Source: a virus (Duplodnaviria; Heunggongvirae; Uroviricota; Caudoviricetes). Taken from it: DNA of 40,741 nucleotides. The stretch is from positions 1 to 40,741 of the IMG/VR virus record IMGVR_UViG_2711768062_000003. The stretch is one strand, 5' to 3'. Each line of letters opens with the position of its first letter. The stretch's first letter is position 1. Shown here piece by piece: positions 14,625-22,551 of the stretch. Position numbers and translations under genes: made by a program. The notes beneath the pieces are model-generated. The model ran no database searches, was not told where the DNA came from, and worked only from the letters and a program-made list of their open reading frames with translations.

Positions 14625-14761
14625 CATCAGAACTGATTGAGGTAATCCGCATGCGCTGGACACGCCTCCGCATTTATCGCCGCCCGGGTTCGGTGCTGGT
14701 GGACTACCGCATTCTTCGCAATTTTATTCGCATTAACCAGTTGGCAGGAGCTGCTGCATGA
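14621..14761 (+). CDS. Possible 46-aa translationally coupled ORF between rusA and Q
   Basis: ATG overlaps rusA stop and its TGA overlaps Q start (ATGA junctions at both ends); basic, no homology known to me. Confidence 0.25.
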
Positions 14762-15588
14762 ACCTCGAAAACACCGTGAAATACCACTTCGCCAAATCGA
14801 CGCTGATTAGCGACTCTCCGCGCGCTACGGCCTCCGACTCGCTGACCGGAACGGACATCATGGCAGCCATGGGCATGACCCAGGAACGCGCCGCCATGGG
14901 CTACAGTGCCTTTCTCGGAAAGATGGGCATCAGCAACAACGATCGGGAGAGAGCGATCGAGCTGCTGGCCCAGTATGCGCTGACAAAATGCGATAGCGTG
15001 GCTGCCCTGCGCAAACTGGACGCTGGGGTTAAACCGCTGGTGATGCGCCAGCTTGCTACCTTCGCTTTTGAGGACTATTCCCGCAGCGCCGCCAGCGTCA
15101 AGAGGTGCGAATGTTGCGCAGGGCAGGGGTTCATTGAGGCTGACGTTTTTAGTATGAAAACCAGCATCTCTGGCTGCGCAAAAGACATCATTCAAAAATC
15201 AAAAAAATGGGGGCTGAAGGTTATCCCTTCGCAGCATCAGAATCGGCGTGAGGTGAAAGAGGTGGCCCGGGTGCTGTGCTCGGCCTGCAAAGGGAAGACG
15301 GTCGTCAGCTGCGCATGTAATGACTGCCAGGGGCGCGGAAAAGCTGTCAGCAAGACGCTGACAGAAAAGCAGGGCGCGCCGGTGATGGCCGACTGCAAGC
15401 GCTGCGGCGGGCGCGGGTATGAGCGGATCCCCTCGACTGAGGCATATGCGGCTGTTTGCCTTATTACCGACGCCATTACTCTGGACACCTGGAAAAAGTC
15501 AGTGAAGCCGTTTTACGACCGGCTGATCACCAAATTCGACATGGAAGAAGCGTGGGCCGAATCGCAACTGCGAGCAATAACTCGATAA
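14758..15588 (+). CDS. Late-gene antiterminator (Q-like, Cys-rich Zn-finger type)
   Basis: 276-aa ORF located immediately upstream of the late promoter region and lysis cassette; multiple CxxC pairs (CECCAGQG, CSACKGK, CNDCQGRG, CKRCGGRG). Confidence 0.6.
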   Translation: MNLENTVKYHFAKSTLISDSPRATASDSLTGTDIMAAMGMTQERAAMGYSAFLGKMGISNNDRERAIELLAQYALTKCDSVAALRKLDAGVKPLVMRQLATFAFEDYSRSAASVKRCECCAGQGFIEADVFSMKTSISGCAKDIIQKSKKWGLKVIPSQHQNRREVKEVARVLCSACKGKTVVSCACNDCQGRGKAVSKTLTEKQGAPVMADCKRCGGRGYERIPSTEAYAAVCLITDAITLDTWKKSVKPFYDRLITKFDMEEAWAESQLRAITR

Positions 15589-15625
15589 AGCACCAATTAA
15601 TCGCTGTCGATTTTATCGTGAGCTA

Positions 15626-15653
15626 TTTACTTTTCCCGAATCTGTGTTAATTT
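15626..15653 (+). promoter_or_regulatory. Candidate late promoter (PR-prime-like)
   Basis: TTTACT-16 bp-TAATTT with TGn extended -10, about 40 nt after Q stop, followed by a GC-rich hairpin at 15684-15713. Confidence 0.25.
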
Positions 15654-15968
15654 CTCTCCAACGATGGGTTACTGCCTTCGTTTAAAGCCCTGCGGTTAAC
15701 CCCGCGGGGCTTTGCCGTTTCTGGAGGGTATGAAAATGTAGAGTAGAACGGACACACCGTAGCCGAAAGGCAATGCAGCAGTCATGATGCTGCCCCGAGT
15801 CGCCATTGAGCGAGCCTGTGTAGTGACGGGTCAGGGTTCATAGATTAAAAATAGCTCCGGTAAAGCAGCGCGAAAGCCAGACGCGCACCGGTGATAAGCG
15901 GCGATGATGCGACAGCAGCTCAAGGGCATGAGCGTGGCCACTCCGGGAAGTGGCAAAGAATTTATAGA

Positions 15969-15997
15969 GGCTCGCATACGCGGGCCTTTTCTTTTTC
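15969..15997 (+). terminator. Candidate rho-independent terminator in the Q-S intergenic region (tR-prime-like)
   Basis: GGCTCGC-atac-GCGGGCC hairpin followed by TTTTCTTTTTC. Confidence 0.45.
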
Positions 15998-16096
15998 AGG
16001 CTCCGGGAAACCTCCTCAACAAGCCTTGTTGTTAATGCAGCCCGAGAGCCTGATCCCCATTACACATAGCACCCCGAAATAATCGGAGGTGAGAGC

Positions 16097-16312
16097 ATGT
16101 TACGCATGGAAAAACTAACCACTGGCATCGCCTATGGTGCATCAGCGACTAACGCTGGTTACTGGAGCCTGCAGTTGCTTGACCAGGTGTCACCATCGCA
16201 GTGGGCAGCCATTGGTGTGCTTGGCAGCCTGGTGTTCGGGCTGCTGACGTATCTGACAAACCTGTATTTCAAAATCAAAGAGGACCGGCGCAAAGCCGCC
16301 AGGGGGGAATAG
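16097..16312 (+). CDS. Class II holin (phage 21 S21-type pinholin) with dual start motif
   Basis: 71 aa; strongly resembles S21 (TGIAYG ... AGYW ... [18 protein letters not shown] ... [11 protein letters not shown] ... [10 protein letters not shown]); N-terminal MLRMEK gives two Met starts. Confidence 0.85.
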
Positions 16313-16848
16313 TGGCTGACAGATCAAAGCTTAGCGCTGCGGTATTAGGTCTTATCCTCGCCGGTGCGTCAGCGCCCGTTATTCTCGATCAGTTCCTGAA
16401 TGAGAAGGAAGGCAACAGCCTGATTGCTTATCAGGACGGTGGCGGCGTCTGGACTATTTGCCGCGGCGCCACGCTGGTAGATGGTAAACCAGTTCGCCAG
16501 GGCATGAAGCTGACGCAGGCCAAATGTGACCAGGTGAATGCCGTTGAGCGAAATAAAGCGCTGGCCTGGGTTGAACGCAATATCAGGGTGCCGCTGACCG
16601 AACCGCAAAAGGCCGGAATAGCTTCTTTCTGCCCGTATAACATCGGGCCCGGTAAGTGCTTCCCCTCGACGTTCTATAAGCGCATCAATGCCGGTGACCG
16701 TAAAGGGGCATGCGAAGCGATCCGCTGGTGGATAAAAGATGGCGGCCGGGATTGCCGGCTAACCAAGGGGCAGAAGAACGGATGCTTCGGTCAGGTGGAA
16801 CGCCGCGACCAAGAAAGCGCGTTGGCATGCTGGGGGCTCGATAAATGA
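16312..16848 (+). CDS. SAR endolysin (lysozyme-like with N-terminal signal-anchor-release domain)
   Basis: GTG start overlapping holin stop; hydrophobic N-terminus LSAAVLGLILAGASAPVIL then E-x8-D-x5-T region (EGNSLIAYQDGGGVWTICRG) as in phage 21 / P1 Lyz endolysins. Confidence 0.85.
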   Translation: MADRSKLSAAVLGLILAGASAPVILDQFLNEKEGNSLIAYQDGGGVWTICRGATLVDGKPVRQGMKLTQAKCDQVNAVERNKALAWVERNIRVPLTEPQKAGIASFCPYNIGPGKCFPSTFYKRINAGDRKGACEAIRWWIKDGGRDCRLTKGQKNGCFGQVERRDQESALACWGLDK

Positions 16849-17237
16849 AAGCTCGTCACATCATTGCGATTGCCATATTCCTCCTTTGCCTGTTCGGCGG
16901 GGCGTGCTGGTCGGCATGGTATTACAGCGACAAAGCCAGTAGCGAAAAGGAGCGGGCCGATAGCGCAGAACAGCAGGCTGAGACCGCGAATGCTGTCACC
17001 GCGAACGTGATTCGGGCCGTGAGTATCATCAACGCCATTTCAGAGGCGAACCAGAATGCAAAGAACAAGATCGCACTGGAGTCACAGAGAGCCCAGGCAG
17101 ATATCAAAGTGGCTGTTGCGGATGATGATTGCGCTCGTCGGCCTGTGCCTGCTGCAGCTGCTAACCGGCTGCGGGAATACGCGGACAGTTTACGTGCAGG
17201 CGCCGGTGGTGCCCCTGCCGGCGAACCTGACAGCTGA
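16845..17237 (+). CDS. Rz-like inner-membrane spanin (i-spanin)
   Basis: 130 aa; N-terminal TM helix (IIAIAIFLLCLFGGACWSAWYY) then coiled-coil-like periplasmic domain; ATGA overlap with endolysin. Confidence 0.75.
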   Translation: MKARHIIAIAIFLLCLFGGACWSAWYYSDKASSEKERADSAEQQAETANAVTANVIRAVSIINAISEANQNAKNKIALESQRAQADIKVAVADDDCARRPVPAAAANRLREYADSLRAGAGGAPAGEPDS

Positions 17238-17385
17238 AACACCACAGCCTGCCATTCCCGAGCCGCTGACCTACGGGGACAGTCTGGATCTGAATGTCAG
17301 TCTGCTATCGGCGCTGGGGCAATGCAATCGGGATAAGGCTGATATATGGAAGGTTGAGCTTTCACGCACATCTCATTTTAAATAA
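17122..17385 (+). CDS. Rz1-like outer-membrane lipoprotein spanin (o-spanin), begins inside Rz in the +1 frame and extends beyond it
   Basis: MMIALVGLCLLQLLTGCG: signal peptide with lipobox LTGC; Pro-rich mature part. Confidence 0.7.
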   Translation: MMIALVGLCLLQLLTGCGNTRTVYVQAPVVPLPANLTAETPQPAIPEPLTYGDSLDLNVSLLSALGQCNRDKADIWKVELSRTSHFK

Positions 17386-17566
17386 CAATATTTGCGAAAG
17401 TTACCCGTTTCGCTATCATAAAAAATGTTAACCCACGGAAAGTTCAAGGAGGTCTTTTTGACCCAGTTTTTGGACTTCCCCTTAAGCAACCGTTGATCGT
17501 GACGTCAGGGTTCCTGAGCCAGGGGTAACAGAAATCGAGAGGATAGTGCGAAGGGAGAATTCCGAG

Positions 17567-17749
17567 ATGGATGACCATCTTGAGATTTTTACCACCCGCG
17601 TCTGGGACGTTGGAGTCTCCCGCCTTTCAGGTCACGCTGTTGGGTCAATTCATGAAAAGCCAAGGGGCTCAGGTGACGCTGCTTGGTTTGGCCCCGAAAT
17701 GTCCGTCGCGTCATTAGGGATAACTGAACCTTGTAGTAATTCGCATTAG
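17567..17749 (+). CDS. Possible small ORF (60 aa) in a promoter-to-terminator unit; could instead be a non-coding RNA
   Basis: ATG with AAGGGAGAA SD; candidate promoter TTGCGA-16-TATCAT at 17391-17424; strong terminator about 20 nt after stop. Confidence 0.25.
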   Translation: MDDHLEIFTTRVWDVGVSRLSGHAVGSIHEKPRGSGDAAWFGPEMSVASLGITEPCSNSH

Positions 17750-17767
17750 CTTGGCCTTCCTTTCACC

Positions 17768-17793
17768 TACAAACCGCCTACGGGCGGTTTTTT
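17768..17793 (+). terminator. Rho-independent terminator
   Basis: AAACCGCC-tac-GGGCGG followed by TTTTTT. Confidence 0.7.
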
Positions 17794-17884
17794 AGTGTCA
17801 ACGCTATGGACAAACTCATCTTTATGGCTACATCCCCCGGAGGGGATGCGTAAAAGGCTTAAGAAAAATGATTTTGAAAAATGC

Positions 17885-18145
17885 TTATTGTGCTCTGCCT
17901 AGTAGAGCAGCGACTCTCTCGTTTAATTTTTCTAGGTATCCATCTTTAGCGGGAATGTCGAATTCGATGGGGTCGGCCTTAGAAACCCCTTCTAAATAAA
18001 CATCTCCGAGGTGAGTTTCTTTCCCCACAACTCCGTTTAAAGCCGTTGATAATACAGCAATAGCAACACGAGAAGCGTGGCTGTGTAACTGTAACTCTTC
18101 AACCAAATCCTCAAGATGGGCAATTCTTTTTTCTACATCTGACAT
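17885..18145 (-). CDS. Hypothetical protein (AT-rich moron, antisense to late genes)
   Basis: 86-aa ORF; AAGGAA SD 7 nt upstream of ATG; AT-rich; between lysis cassette and terminase. Confidence 0.6.
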   Translation of the reverse strand: MSDVEKRIAHLEDLVEELQLHSHASRVAIAVLSTALNGVVGKETHLGDVYLEGVSKADPIEFDIPAKDGYLEKLNERVAALLGRAQ

Positions 18146-18281
18146 AGTCGTTCCTTTGCATCAAAGTTCTTAGGGTTGAAACATGACACTTGTATAGAAG
18201 CAAAATAATTTTTGCCGCTAATACTTCGTCATTTTCAATGGTTACTATCGCCTCGTTTATTGGAATATTCCAGAGAGTTTT

Positions 18282-18989
18282 ATGGCAAAACCGGACTGGG
18301 GAAGCCTCCAAAGACGGTTCCTCGCCGAGCATGCCAAAACAGGTATATCGCCGAAAGAATGGTGCGAAGCGCAGGGACTGAATTATACATCTGCGCGCAG
18401 GTACATCAAAAAGCCTGCTGCGCAAAAAACTGCGCAAAAGGATGTGCGCAAAACTGCGCAAAGCCAGATGCCGCATGTAGTAGTGGTTGAAGCCTCTACG
18501 CCAGTTGAGGGCGATACTGCGCAGGAAAACGCAGGCATCCTTAAACCACAGCATGAGCAGTTTGCGCAGAACATCGCGCGGGGCATGCCGCAGAAAGAGG
18601 CGGCGATATGCGCGGGCTATTCGCCTTCACGCGCTGATTCCCAGGCATCGATACTTTTCAAACGCCCGGATGTGCGCAGGCGCATCAGAGAGCTGCGTCA
18701 GGATGCCGCTCTGCTCGTATCATTCGACGCGAAAGACCTGGCTGAACTCTCCTACAAATCGGCGAAAGCCGCGCTGGACGCTGAGAAGTTTGGGCAGGTA
18801 GCCCCGAACATCAAAAACGCCGCGCAGCTCACCGGCATCGACATGAGCAACAAAACGGAAGTGAATGTCGATCTGGCTGGCCTGAGTTACGGAAAGGTCT
18901 GCATCGTCACGCCGTCGAACTGCCCGCCTGAAGCGTGGGCAGCGCACATGGATAAGCTGCGCGAGGGAAAGCAGACAGCCCAACAATAA
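18282..18989 (+). CDS. Terminase small subunit
   Basis: 235 aa; motif [23 protein letters not shown] ... [18 protein letters not shown] characteristic of small terminase HTH domain; directly upstream of the large subunit. Confidence 0.7.
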
Positions 18990-19024
18990 TCGATGGTGTC
19001 CTGTACTCATTCAGTAGCGACTGG

Positions 19025-20230
19025 GTGCTCGGGACGCTGTACGACGCACCGATAGGCTCTGTCCGCTGGCGCTGGACGTATGGCGGTCGTGGTGGCGGCA
19101 AATCGGTAGAGATTGCCCGCGCGCTGGTATTGTTGGGCGCTATCGAGCCAATGATCATCCTGTGCGCTCGTGAGTTCCAGAACTCTATCAACGATTCGGT
19201 ACTGGCACTGCTGGACGCTGAAATCCACTCGCTTGGCCTGGCGCACTTCTACAAGGTCAAGAACAACGAGATAGAGGGCAGCAACGGCACGCGGTTTACC
19301 TTCAAAGGTCTGCGCAACAACATCCAGAGCATTAAGTCGATGCACGGCATCAAAATATGCTGGGTAGAGGAAGCGCAAACCGTATCGCAGGATAGCTGGG
19401 ACATCCTCGGTCCGACCGTTCGCGCCAATAAATCCGAAGTGTGGGTGTCGTTCAACCCGCGCGAAGCTACCGACCCGACCTACGCCATGATGGAGCGGCA
19501 CCGCGCCGATCCCCCTGATGGCGGAGCGATTATTACCTGCGTCAACTACTGCGATAACGCATTCTTCCCTGACGTGCTCAGGCACGAGATGGAATACTGC
19601 AAGCGTATCGACTTCGAGGCTTACGAGCATATCTGGCTGGGGCTGCCGAAGGCGCTCAGTGAGGCCGTTATCTTCTCCGGCAAGTACCGGGTTGAGGCAT
19701 TCTCTGACGACCTGTGGAAAGAAGCCGATCGCCTGTTTTATGGGGCTGACTTCGGTTTCGCCAACGACCCATCCACTCTGGTCCGTTGCTTCATTATCGG
19801 CACCCGATTGTACATCGAGTACGAAGCCTACGGCGTCGGCGTCGAGCTGGACGAAATGGCGCAGTTCTATGACTCCATCCCGGAATCCAGAAAATGGCCC
19901 ATTCACGGCGACTGCAGCCGGCCGGAGACCATCAGTTATCTTTCGCGTCAGGGCTTCATCATCGACGGCGCTACCAAATGGCCGGGGAGCGTTGAGGACG
20001 GCATTACCTACCTGAAAGGGTTCGAAGAAATCATCATCCATGAGCGCTGTAAGCACATGGTCGATGAGGCGCGCCTTTACTCCTACAAAACCGACCGCAT
20101 GACCGGCGAAGTGCTGCCGGTTGTCGTGGATAAGCATAACCACCTGTGGGATGCCGTGCGCTACTCGCTGGATGGATACATCACAAGCGTTGGCGATCTC
20201 GGTGTCTGGGCCGCCCTGGGCAAACAATAA
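19025..20230 (+). CDS. Terminase large subunit (ATPase/nuclease)
   Basis: 401-aa ORF (GTG start); Walker A-like GGRGGGKS and ATPase/nuclease architecture; follows small subunit. Confidence 0.85.
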
Positions 20231-20242
20231 CAGTGAGGGGAT

Positions 20243-21721
20243 ATGTCCCGAAAGAAACGCCAGAGCGGCGCACAAAAGCCCGTCCGGACTGGTGACGGGT
20301 ACAACAACTTCGCGGCTAAGCTCGGCGGCTATACATCCAACATCCAGAGCGGTGGGAGCTATCAGCCTGGCTATATCTCGCGTAACCGCGTACAGCTGGA
20401 ATTTGCGTATCGTTCATCGTTTTTGGTGGGCGCCGGTGTAGACGCTATGGCCGATGATATGACCCGCAAGGGCATAAACATCAGTTCCAAGCTCGAGCCC
20501 GGACAGAAGGGTAAATTTGAGATGTTCTGGGATGACATTGCCATCTGGGACGGACTGAACGACACCCTGAAGTGGTCCCGGCTGTACGGCGGCGCGCTGC
20601 TGGTGGTGCTGCTGGAAGGGCAGGACATGTCCACTCCGCTGAAGCTCGACCGCATCAAAGAGGGTCAGTTCAAGGGGGTGATGTGCCTCGACCGCTGGCA
20701 GGTAACCCCGAGCTATTACGACCTGGTGACCGATTACGGCCCGGAGTTCGGCAAGCCGAAGTACTACAAGGTGGTGACCAACCAGCAGGGGATCCCCCCG
20801 TGGAAGATTCACCACAGCCGCATTATCCGCATGGAAGGTGACACACTGCCATTCCAGCAGGCGCAGACCGAGAACGGCTGGGGAATGTCGGTAGTCGAGC
20901 GTATCTACGAGCGCATTCAGGCGTTCGATACCGCAACCGTCGGCACTACACAGCTGATTCACAAGGCGCACCTGCGTACCTACAGCATTGACGGATTGCG
21001 TAAGATTCTGGCCACTGGCGGCACGCTGGAAGATGGTCTGATGAAGCACATGGACATGATCCGTGAGTTCCAGACCATAGAAGGCATGACCATCATGGAT
21101 AAGTCGGACGAGTTCCAGACCCACAGTTACTCGTTCGCCGGGATCGCTGATGTCATCCTGCGCTTTGCTGAGCAGGTATCCGGCGCAACTGGGATCCCGC
21201 TGGTGCGCCTGTTCGGGCAGTCACCATCCGGATTCAGCACCGGCGACGGGGATCTGGAGAACTACTACAGCCGCGTTAACTCGCTGCAGGAGCGCCGCCT
21301 GCGCCGACACATCCGCTGGCTGCTGGATATCTCCTGGCGCTCCCTGTTCGGACAGCCCCTGCCGGAAGACTTCACCTTCGAGTTCAACAAGCTCTGGGAG
21401 ATGTCGGACACTGACCGGGCGACAATGGCCAGCAACGTGGCCACCGCCCTGGCGACTGCCGTGCGCGACATCGGTATGCCGCAGCATGCCGCGCTGAACG
21501 ACCTGCGCAACCTGTCCGACATCATCGGTATCGGCGGCTCTATCACCGACAAGGATATTGAAGATGCCAAAGCAGAATGGGAGGAGGCTGAATCTGAAAC
21601 CGAACCTCCGCCGCAAATCGGAGCGCCAGTATCAGAAAAGTCTACAGGAGATAGCGCGTCAGTGCGGCGCGATAGTAACTGGCTCCTACGATGGTTCGGA
21701 AGCGAGCGCCGAGCAGGTTAG
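20243..21721 (+). CDS. Portal protein
   Basis: 492-aa ORF after terminase; acidic C-terminal region; the last 160 nt overlap the next gene in another frame, so the true end is uncertain. Confidence 0.75.
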   Translation: MSRKKRQSGAQKPVRTGDGYNNFAAKLGGYTSNIQSGGSYQPGYISRNRVQLEFAYRSSFLVGAGVDAMADDMTRKGINISSKLEPGQKGKFEMFWDDIAIWDGLNDTLKWSRLYGGALLVVLLEGQDMSTPLKLDRIKEGQFKGVMCLDRWQVTPSYYDLVTDYGPEFGKPKYYKVVTNQQGIPPWKIHHSRIIRMEGDTLPFQQAQTENGWGMSVVERIYERIQAFDTATVGTTQLIHKAHLRTYSIDGLRKILATGGTLEDGLMKHMDMIREFQTIEGMTIMDKSDEFQTHSYSFAGIADVILRFAEQVSGATGIPLVRLFGQSPSGFSTGDGDLENYYSRVNSLQERRLRRHIRWLLDISWRSLFGQPLPEDFTFEFNKLWEMSDTDRATMASNVATALATAVRDIGMPQHAALNDLRNLSDIIGIGGSITDKDIEDAKAEWEEAESETEPPPQIGAPVSEKSTGDSASVRRDSNWLLRWFGSERRAG

Positions 21722-22353: not shown

Positions 22354-22551
22354 TCAATCTACATAAACCCTGAATTGAGCTGAATTACCCTCTACGGCAT
22401 CAATGCGAGCGTTCACCCCGAGCGCTGCAAGTTGGTCTTTGATTTTGGTGTAACGCTCGCCCTCAACATAGTCATTGTTGAGGCCAGTGGTGCGTGACCA
22501 CTCATCTGCCATGCGATCCATCTTCGCTAACAATTCTGCTTTAGTGCTCAT
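22354..22551 (-). CDS. Hypothetical protein (moron antisense within head gene cluster)
   Basis: 65 aa from ATG with AAGGAG SD; own terminator; perfect TTGACA hexamer upstream on minus strand. Confidence 0.55.
   Translation of the reverse strand: MSTKAELLAKMDRMADEWSRTTGLNNDYVEGERYTKIKDQLAALGVNARIDAVEGNSAQFRVYVD

Follow-up and report, generated by a model that had tools for sequence, protein, structure and literature searches.

What is the small, AT-rich reading frame that runs against the late genes of this prophage, does it encode a protein, and what might such a protein do to its host? The DNA analysed here (40,741 nt, IMG/VR record IMGVR_UViG_2711768062_000003, hereafter the window) is an Escherichia coli prophage, and a 1.4-kb locus within it recurs at 99.9-100% identity in 17 of the 5426 complete E. 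coli genomes searched; NCTC11023, a natural lysogen, has a copy at 99.6% identity. A sequence-only reading had singled out one gene in this locus, describing it as an AT-rich minus-strand ORF of 86 codons with a strong Shine-Dalgarno sequence, antisense to late transcription at a typical moron site between the lysis and terminase genes, and belonging to no recognisable family. Apart from the point on family, that description stands. The features of the locus are collected in Table 1.

Table 1. Features at and around the antisense gene, in window coordinates.
Feature	Position	Strand	Basis or remark
Q-type antiterminator	14758-15588	plus	Pfam on identical contigs / PGAP
Class II holin	16097-16312	plus	Pfam on identical contigs / PGAP
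Lysozyme	ends 16848	plus	Pfam on identical contigs / PGAP
Rz/DUF2570	16845-17237	plus	Pfam on identical contigs / PGAP
Rz1/LysC	17056-17385	plus	Pfam on identical contigs / PGAP
Variable segment (pid + 356-bp spacer module), moron boundaries	17346..18278		Homology to L027, a related E. coli prophage without pid, stops at 17345 and returns at 18279
Bidirectional hairpin AAACCGCC/GGCGGTTT (plus-strand loop TACG)	17771..17796		95 nt past pid stop
3' hairpin 1, GCAUCCCC-uccg-GGGGAUGU	17830..17849	minus	36 nt past stop; 8 bp, GC-rich, dG -15.6 kcal/mol
pid-like CDS	17885..18145	minus	86 aa, 9.36 kDa, pI 5.0
Proximal 5' leader, homologous to last ~45 nt of P22 pid 5'UTR	18146..18190	minus	BLASTN
Shine-Dalgarno AAGGAA	18151..18156	minus	6 nt 5' of pid-like ATG
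Terminase_2 small subunit (terS)	18282-18989	plus	Pfam on identical contigs / PGAP
Candidate sigma-70 promoter TTGATG-16 nt-TATAAT (10/12)	18382..18409	minus	Consensus scan, prediction; inside terS
TerL	19025-20230	plus	Pfam on identical contigs / PGAP
DUF1073/Phage_portal_3 portal	20243-21721	plus	Pfam on identical contigs / PGAP

The frame is present exactly as the sequence-only reading gave it, flanked by Rz1/LysC on one side and terS on the other, both on the plus strand. Its ATG, the earliest possible start past an in-frame stop, is served by an AAGGAA that bears out the claim of a strong ribosome-binding site, and the AAGGA core is unchanged across a seven-locus upstream alignment. The AT-richness is equally clear: the ORF has 42.9% GC where its late-gene flanks have about 57% (57.6% for the late genes and 56% for the lysis genes, 53.4% for the whole window), its GC3 is 33% against 62% in terS, and the spacer at 18146-18281 falls to 35%. 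The length of the frame is not by itself beyond chance; a rough estimate puts the expected number of frames this long in a short AT-rich stretch at a few tenths. We accept the ORF as real because it is conserved across relatives, and not because of its length. Conservation as coding sequence, which had been set in advance as the test of the gene, is what we find: the frame of 85-86 codons is intact in all 11 distinct nucleotide relatives examined, differences are in excess at third codon positions (28/12/44 by position in the comparison with P22, for example), and dN/dS is 0.15-0.28 (Nei-Gojobori, in comparisons with unsaturated dS). The ORF is a real protein-coding gene under purifying selection.

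The gene belongs almost certainly to the Pid family, as its protein sequence indicates. A tblastn search of phage records matched 30 records of P22-like Salmonella phages at 61.6% identity, gap-free over 86/86 aa (E=7e-30), and the BTP1 and phage P6 records name that gene 'Pid regulatory protein'. Residues 1-86 of 86 match phrog_16546 in PHROGs (E=5e-36), as do all 22 aligned members of the family. P22 was reached through the protein-level search only; megablast of the locus against phage records returned no match. The verdict of no recognisable family hence holds for Pfam and NCBIfam, where there is no usable family for the protein, and for PADLOC-DB, where 0 defence-system HMM families match at E<=10, and it fails for PHROGs and for phage records, where P22 Pid lies. 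The ORF looked like an orphan because PGAP calls it a 'hypothetical protein' and because the P22 RefSeq entry leaves pid unannotated. A match to SlyX (PF04102) was discarded as coiled-coil noise: at 16.9 bits it is well under the cutoff of 30 (E=0.01), and it appears in only 4 of 22 family members, beside assorted coiled-coil families. We also note that the gene is missing from the annotation of P22 in RefSeq (NC_002371.2, where it would occupy 1019-1279) and in the GenBank records, and that the BTP1 annotation (701-1015) gives a 104-aa version from an upstream start and not the 86-aa protein.

An exhaustive HMM search of 1.84 billion cluster representatives gives the Pid family 21 representatives at E<=1e-3; this depth was needed, as a word-indexed protein search had returned only 5 relatives and missed P22 Pid. 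The named sources are E. coli/Enterobacteriaceae, Pantoea agglomerans, Enterobacter spp., Klebsiella spp., Erwinia, Trabulsiella and Buttiauxella, to which Salmonella prophages are to be added, and every representative from a named source is annotated 'hypothetical protein'. A scan of genome contigs found a single locus, in Buttiauxella. Members measure 80-89 aa, except for two fragments or chimeras and one call with an 18-residue N-terminal extension, and they align almost without gaps. L11, A24 and L74 are invariant and M1, L20, H23, A28, I29, S33, Y70, L81 and L82 nearly so. Two conserved motifs are also present in the window protein, LE..L.L..HA.R.AI..LS and, at the C-terminus, Y..KL...V..LL. 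The E. coli allele forms a distinct branch, nearest to representative P0002 (69%), then to the P22 group (62%), while the Enterobacter-type representative P0008 is 48% identical to it. Relatives outside Salmonella are not new, given that a 2013 addendum noted a homolog antisense to the late genes of a prophage in Enterobacter cloacae ENHKU01 (PMC3694060); a 2022 paper still terms pid an ORFan (PMC8835761), and in the searchable literature we found no report of E. coli pid alleles or of the extent of the family.

P22 Pid, the reference member, is a 9.3-kDa moron protein that has been detected by mass spectrometry, with AAGGAG as its Shine-Dalgarno sequence (PMC3573128). When induced, it derepresses the Salmonella dgoRKAT operon, and multicopy dgoR cancels the derepression; a start-codon frameshift removes both protein and phenotype, the effect is due to protein and not to RNA, and deletion of pid leaves the lytic and lysogenic growth of P22 unaffected (PMC3573128). 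The substitution T84M attenuates the Pid/dgo interaction (PMC8835761). P22 pid is expressed in carrier-state cells (PMC3573128, PMC8835761), and BTP1 pid, identical to the P22 allele, exceeds a TPM of 100 in lysogens (PMC7067206); expression confined to carrier-state cells or lysogens, as against strictly lytic infection, is known for these two phages. The window allele shares with P22 and BTP1 Pid its 86-aa length, its gap-free alignment, the type of Shine-Dalgarno sequence, the low-GC character of a moron, the homologous proximal leader of 45 nt, and the antisense position in the late region, past the lysis genes and before the packaging genes. It differs in its host, in an unrelated virion and packaging module (with a Terminase_2 terS and a DUF1073 portal), in a promoter region without detectable homology, in the lack of the hairpin that ends the P22 gene just past its stop codon, and in carrying R in place of T84. 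The immediate neighbours differ as well: here pid adjoins terS directly, where P22 has orf80 and orf59c between, and neither rha nor orf25 is found on its other side.

The position of the gene is itself a recurrent trait. In P22, Pantoea and metagenome loci, an antisense pid has terS on one side and, on the other, an endolysin/Rz/Rz1 block that in some cases includes rha, and the same setting is found in 6 of 9 distinct IMG/VR loci (L011, L013, L018, L020, L022 and L023). In L019 the gene lies, as in P22, between orf80/TerL and Rz; in L021 the flank could be identified on the lysis side only, and in L010/L025 and L024 on neither. The flanking genes are themselves often no more than distant relatives, or are unrelated, between loci, and the window prophage has a virion module unlike that of P22, with Klebsiella, Yersinia and Elizabethkingia phages as the best DNA matches. 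Presence and absence at this junction, which the sequence-only reading had proposed to compare among related prophages, can be seen in the CX12 prophage of E. coli, where Rz/LysC is 78.5% and the 5' end of terS 83% identical to the window and terS has the same MAKPDWG... N-terminus. With these homologous flanks CX12 has no pid, and the gap from Rz/LysC to terS is 274 bp against 933 bp in the window. The deviant GC, the site at the lysis/terminase junction and the absence from CX12 bear out the earlier assignment, and the pid-like gene is supported as a moron. Lambda bor, a lysogen-expressed moron just past Rz/Rz1 and antisense to the late operon, encodes an outer-membrane lipoprotein with a signal peptide. 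It is a positional analog of the window gene; unlike Bor, the pid-like protein has neither signal nor lipobox, no membrane helix, and no sequence similarity to it. The gene persists in decayed prophages. In truncated prophage remnants of two E. coli assemblies that encode the exact protein, pid, terS and terL are kept and other modules are gone, with dmsCBA-serS in place of the lysis genes in one (L004) and yciI-tonB-yciABC in place of the head genes in the other (L008).

Several other elements in and around this region were seen in passing. Between lysC and the 3' hairpins of pid lies the unannotated module of ~356 bp (17405-17761, plus strand), which may be the leader or remnant of another accessory cassette. 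A copy that is 77.6% identical, and nearly 100% over ~17420-17510, stands in the prophage of E. coli strain 53 (L026:3001-3356), directly after the lysis cassette of a prophage without pid, and is followed by two small plus-strand ORFs and then by a copy of the terminator at 17772-17800. The module has a weak sigma-70-like site at 17392-17419 and an AAGGAGG-TTG mini-ORF of 12 codons, and it matched nothing in Rfam or in the phage collection. A 67-aa plus-strand ORF within it (17546-17749) was rejected as a gene: the strain 53 copy carries frame-breaking indels, and neither Pfam nor PHROG gave a match. A second small antisense ORF (22354-22551, minus; 65 aa from ATG, 75 aa from the first TTG) lies between a Mu_F-like head morphogenesis gene and a Pa193_gp24-like gene. 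Every full-length copy has it as a gene call, labelled 'hypothetical protein' by PGAP (WP_053271619.1); it has no Pfam or PHROG match, and may be another moron. Phages of the P0002 type (L034-L036, ~330-680) carry an ORF of 86-110 aa antisense to the late genes between terL and portal, and the Pantoea loci (L031-L033) a 58-aa ORF on the same strand as pid, ~270 nt downstream of it.

Significant DNA homology to P22 spans 18190..17873 (68.9% identity, E=3e-33, BLASTN), that is, from 45 nt 5' of the ATG to 12 nt past the stop codon, and upstream of -45 BLASTN gives no significant homology to P22. The P22 counterpart of the homologous leader belongs to a stretch that the secondary 'S-band' transcript requires, and P22 pid has a weak promoter of its own, with an eroded -10 box (AATCCT) and a start site 174 nt ahead of the ATG (PMC8835761). 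In the window the pid ATG and the divergent terS ATG are 136 bp apart (42 bp in Pantoea), and a long leader of the P22 kind would begin inside terS because only those 136 bp separate the start codons; the site that aligns with the P22 -10 box reads AACCGT and lies inside terS. The promoter is expected either in the AT-rich spacer of 136 bp or within terS, at its 5' end. One consensus-like site, at 18382..18409, would give a 5'UTR of ~230 nt. It is a candidate that we do not take for the pid promoter: the scan counted 2 promoter-like sites where shuffled sequence gives 1.6, so that the match by itself lacks significance, and conserved terS codons (N-Y...Y-I-K) account for the motif, its -10 part occurring also in the pid-less CX12 prophage. 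The idea that the P22 promoter lies in a relic of a terS 5' end, suggested by an alignment of GGTTTTGACAT with the reverse complement of ATGGCAAAACC, was dropped as unsupported, there being no significant BLASTN homology beyond -45. At 18411-18460 (plus strand) terS also contains successive TGCGCAAAA-like repeats (ctgcgcaaaaaactgcgcaaaaggatgtgcgcaaaactgcgcaaag), from which TerS gains a repetitive AQKTAQK... linker; the scan reports several overlapping terminator-like hairpins on the minus strand, the repeats are conserved in L013, L018 and L022, and they could be a pac-site-like or recombination-prone element.

The 3' side differs from that of most relatives. A stable hairpin starts 4-17 nt past the pid stop codon in 10 of 12 distinct loci, and the window allele has none at that distance; in P22, in L013 and L018, and in the closest relative, P0002, it takes the form of a AAGCCGCT...AGCGGCTT terminator. 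Disruption of this Rho-independent terminator destabilises the pid mRNA of P22, and one stem mutation nearly abolishes the transcript (PMC8835761). The window has two other hairpins. That at 17830..17849 lacks a U tract and is not a canonical terminator, though it could lend stability to the 3' end. The other, at 17771..17796, ends in a U6 tail on the late (plus) strand and in only UUUGU on the pid strand, and it recurs downstream of pid in the IMG/VR locus L020 and, at L026:4085-4113, in the prophage of strain 53. In the window the pid transcript probably ends at this hairpin. On the plus strand it is a canonical intrinsic terminator that points along the late operon, past the lysis genes and ahead of terS, and late transcription has to pass it, presumably by means of Q antitermination. 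Because the P22-type terminator is missing and a single stem mutation in P22 all but eliminates the transcript, expression may be weak here; judged by these comparisons, the window allele may be expressed less, or may rely on the two alternative hairpins. The missing terminator lowers our confidence in equal expression, and not in homology, the terminator being a feature of the P22 locus and not of the family.

The protein itself is predicted to be all-helical. AlphaFold2 with an MSA of 21 sequences gave a model at pLDDT 80, where an earlier run on a 4-sequence alignment had been poor (pLDDT 58), and it places a long helix at residues 3-40, a short one at 46-56 and a C-terminal one at 70-83. 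A transmembrane protein was considered and rejected, the hydrophobic stretch at 27-41 being too short and too polar (the Kyte-Doolittle maximum of 1.15 over 19 residues gives no TM helix). The search for domains recognised no enzymatic or DNA-binding domain. A Foldseek match to the AroQ chorismate mutase (EcCM, PDB 1ecm), at probability 0.13 and 8-10% identity, is of the kind that small helical proteins produce as noise, and no catalytic site is evident because the invariant residues of Pid are hydrophobic. Conservation is uneven along the chain: of 86 residues 33 differ from P22 Pid, with an identity of 71% over residues 1-41, 38% over 42-67 and 74% over 68-86, and position 84 (T in P22, R here) is variable throughout the family.

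What, then, would this protein do in E. coli? The explanation that we favour, and that as a whole we consider probable, is that the window encodes a Pid-family protein that would antagonise DgoR and so derepress dgo. By homology, the small acidic three-helix protein would act against the GntR/FadR-type repressor DgoR, probably by binding it directly; that mode is putative even for P22, and we found no report of direct Pid-DgoR binding, for P22 or otherwise, in the searchable literature. As a result dgoRKADT, the operon for D-galactonate uptake and catabolism, would be expressed without inducer whenever a prophage or episome expresses pid, and in lytic growth convergent late transcription would silence pid. 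The preconditions on the side of the host target hold. Of the 5426 complete E. coli genomes, 5020 have dgoR (92.5%; about 7.5% lack it), and the full dgoRKADT operon is present in COL60J, a carrier of the window prophage and the one of the 17 host genomes that was checked. The E. coli and Salmonella DgoR proteins are 94% identical, and for Enterobacter, Klebsiella and Pantoea, genera with pid homologs, the identity is 86-96%. In the sequence comparison with P22, the diverged middle third, the loss of T84 and the lack of conservation in the regulatory DNA would count against a dgo function here, and the narrower claim that the window Pid acts on DgoR and dgo in E. coli is one that we advance tentatively, as a serious possibility in which we stop short of confidence.

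The main rival is a different target or a role centred on the phage. In this reading, which we think unlikely although not to be set aside lightly, the protein belongs to the Pid family and has an E. coli target other than DgoR or dgo, either because each allele acts on a different host regulator or because the dgo effect in Salmonella is secondary to another activity. Such an alternative conserved activity could lie, for example, in the carrier state or in the control of packaging or lysis, given the fixed site by terS. The pattern of conservation is divided on this point, as the central region, at 38% identity to P22, and the functionally sensitive T84 are poorly kept, whereas the two terminal helices match those of P22 Pid at 71-74% identity. 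That position and orientation between lysis genes and terS are kept across unrelated virion modules suggests a phage-centred role; no benefit of the Pid/dgo interaction is known, and P22 lost nothing in lytic or lysogenic growth with its pid. Against this, derepression of dgo is the sole experimentally known activity of any family member, and its target, DgoR, is highly conserved (86-96%) among host genera in which the family occurs.

Related to it is a broader proposal that we put forward as improbable though worth stating, namely that the Pid family is a position-locked antisense module, held between lysis cassette and terS in phages with unrelated virions across at least eight Enterobacterales genera, whose role may not be D-galactonate metabolism. 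Its members might be small helical anti-repressors, possibly intertwined dimers of the AroQ-like kind, in which case the variable segment 42-67 would perhaps retarget them to different FadR/GntR-type metabolic regulators of the host; or they might be carrier-state or packaging regulators, with derepression of dgo in Salmonella as a by-product. Were this so, the E. coli allele, having lost the canonical terminator, would be a variant under different regulation.

After that main rival, plausibility falls from a defence role through an RNA-only role to a chance ORF. We regard it as very unlikely that the gene is a small anti-phage moron (superinfection exclusion or defence) or an anti-defence one. 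Site and composition are those of a typical moron, the protein has no recognised enzymatic or DNA-binding domain, and lysogens express the BTP1 homolog at a high level beside the defence gene bstA (PMC7067206); the gene, however, stands alone without a partner and matches nothing in PADLOC, deletion of pid in P22 had no effect on infection, and no such activity has been reported for Pid. That the functional unit should be the antisense transcript, interfering with or insulating the late operon or acting as antisense RNA to the lysis or terS mRNA, with the ORF secondary or incidental, is more doubtful still. The gene does converge with the late operon, stable 3' hairpins are present, and a long leader over the 5' end of terS is to be expected (the P22 UTR has 174 nt, and the start codons here are 136 bp apart), but the strong purifying selection is on the protein, ORF length is invariant in 22 diverged homologs, no Rfam family matches at E<=1 over 15000-19500, and in P22 the start-codon frameshift abolishes the phenotype of a protein that mass spectrometry has seen. 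A chance ORF in AT-rich spacer DNA, for which one might cite its unremarkable length and a PGAP label that says only 'hypothetical protein', is refuted by the conservation data and by the record of the exact protein on more than 500 contigs, and we give it next to no credence.

The E. coli allele of Pid does not alter the general view of how phages work. It does call for a correction to annotation, as family members outside BTP1 and P6 are filed as 'hypothetical protein' and the P22 RefSeq entry lacks pid altogether. [quoted passage not shown] An allele 62% identical to that of P22 now stands in a prophage of E. coli, at the junction that pid occupies in P22, within a small family spread across the Enterobacterales. 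The alleles form a natural variant series for mapping residues, with the N- and C-terminal helices conserved and the middle segment and T84 not. DgoR and its operators have been characterised biochemically in E. coli, and the E. coli allele opens access to Pid in that host.
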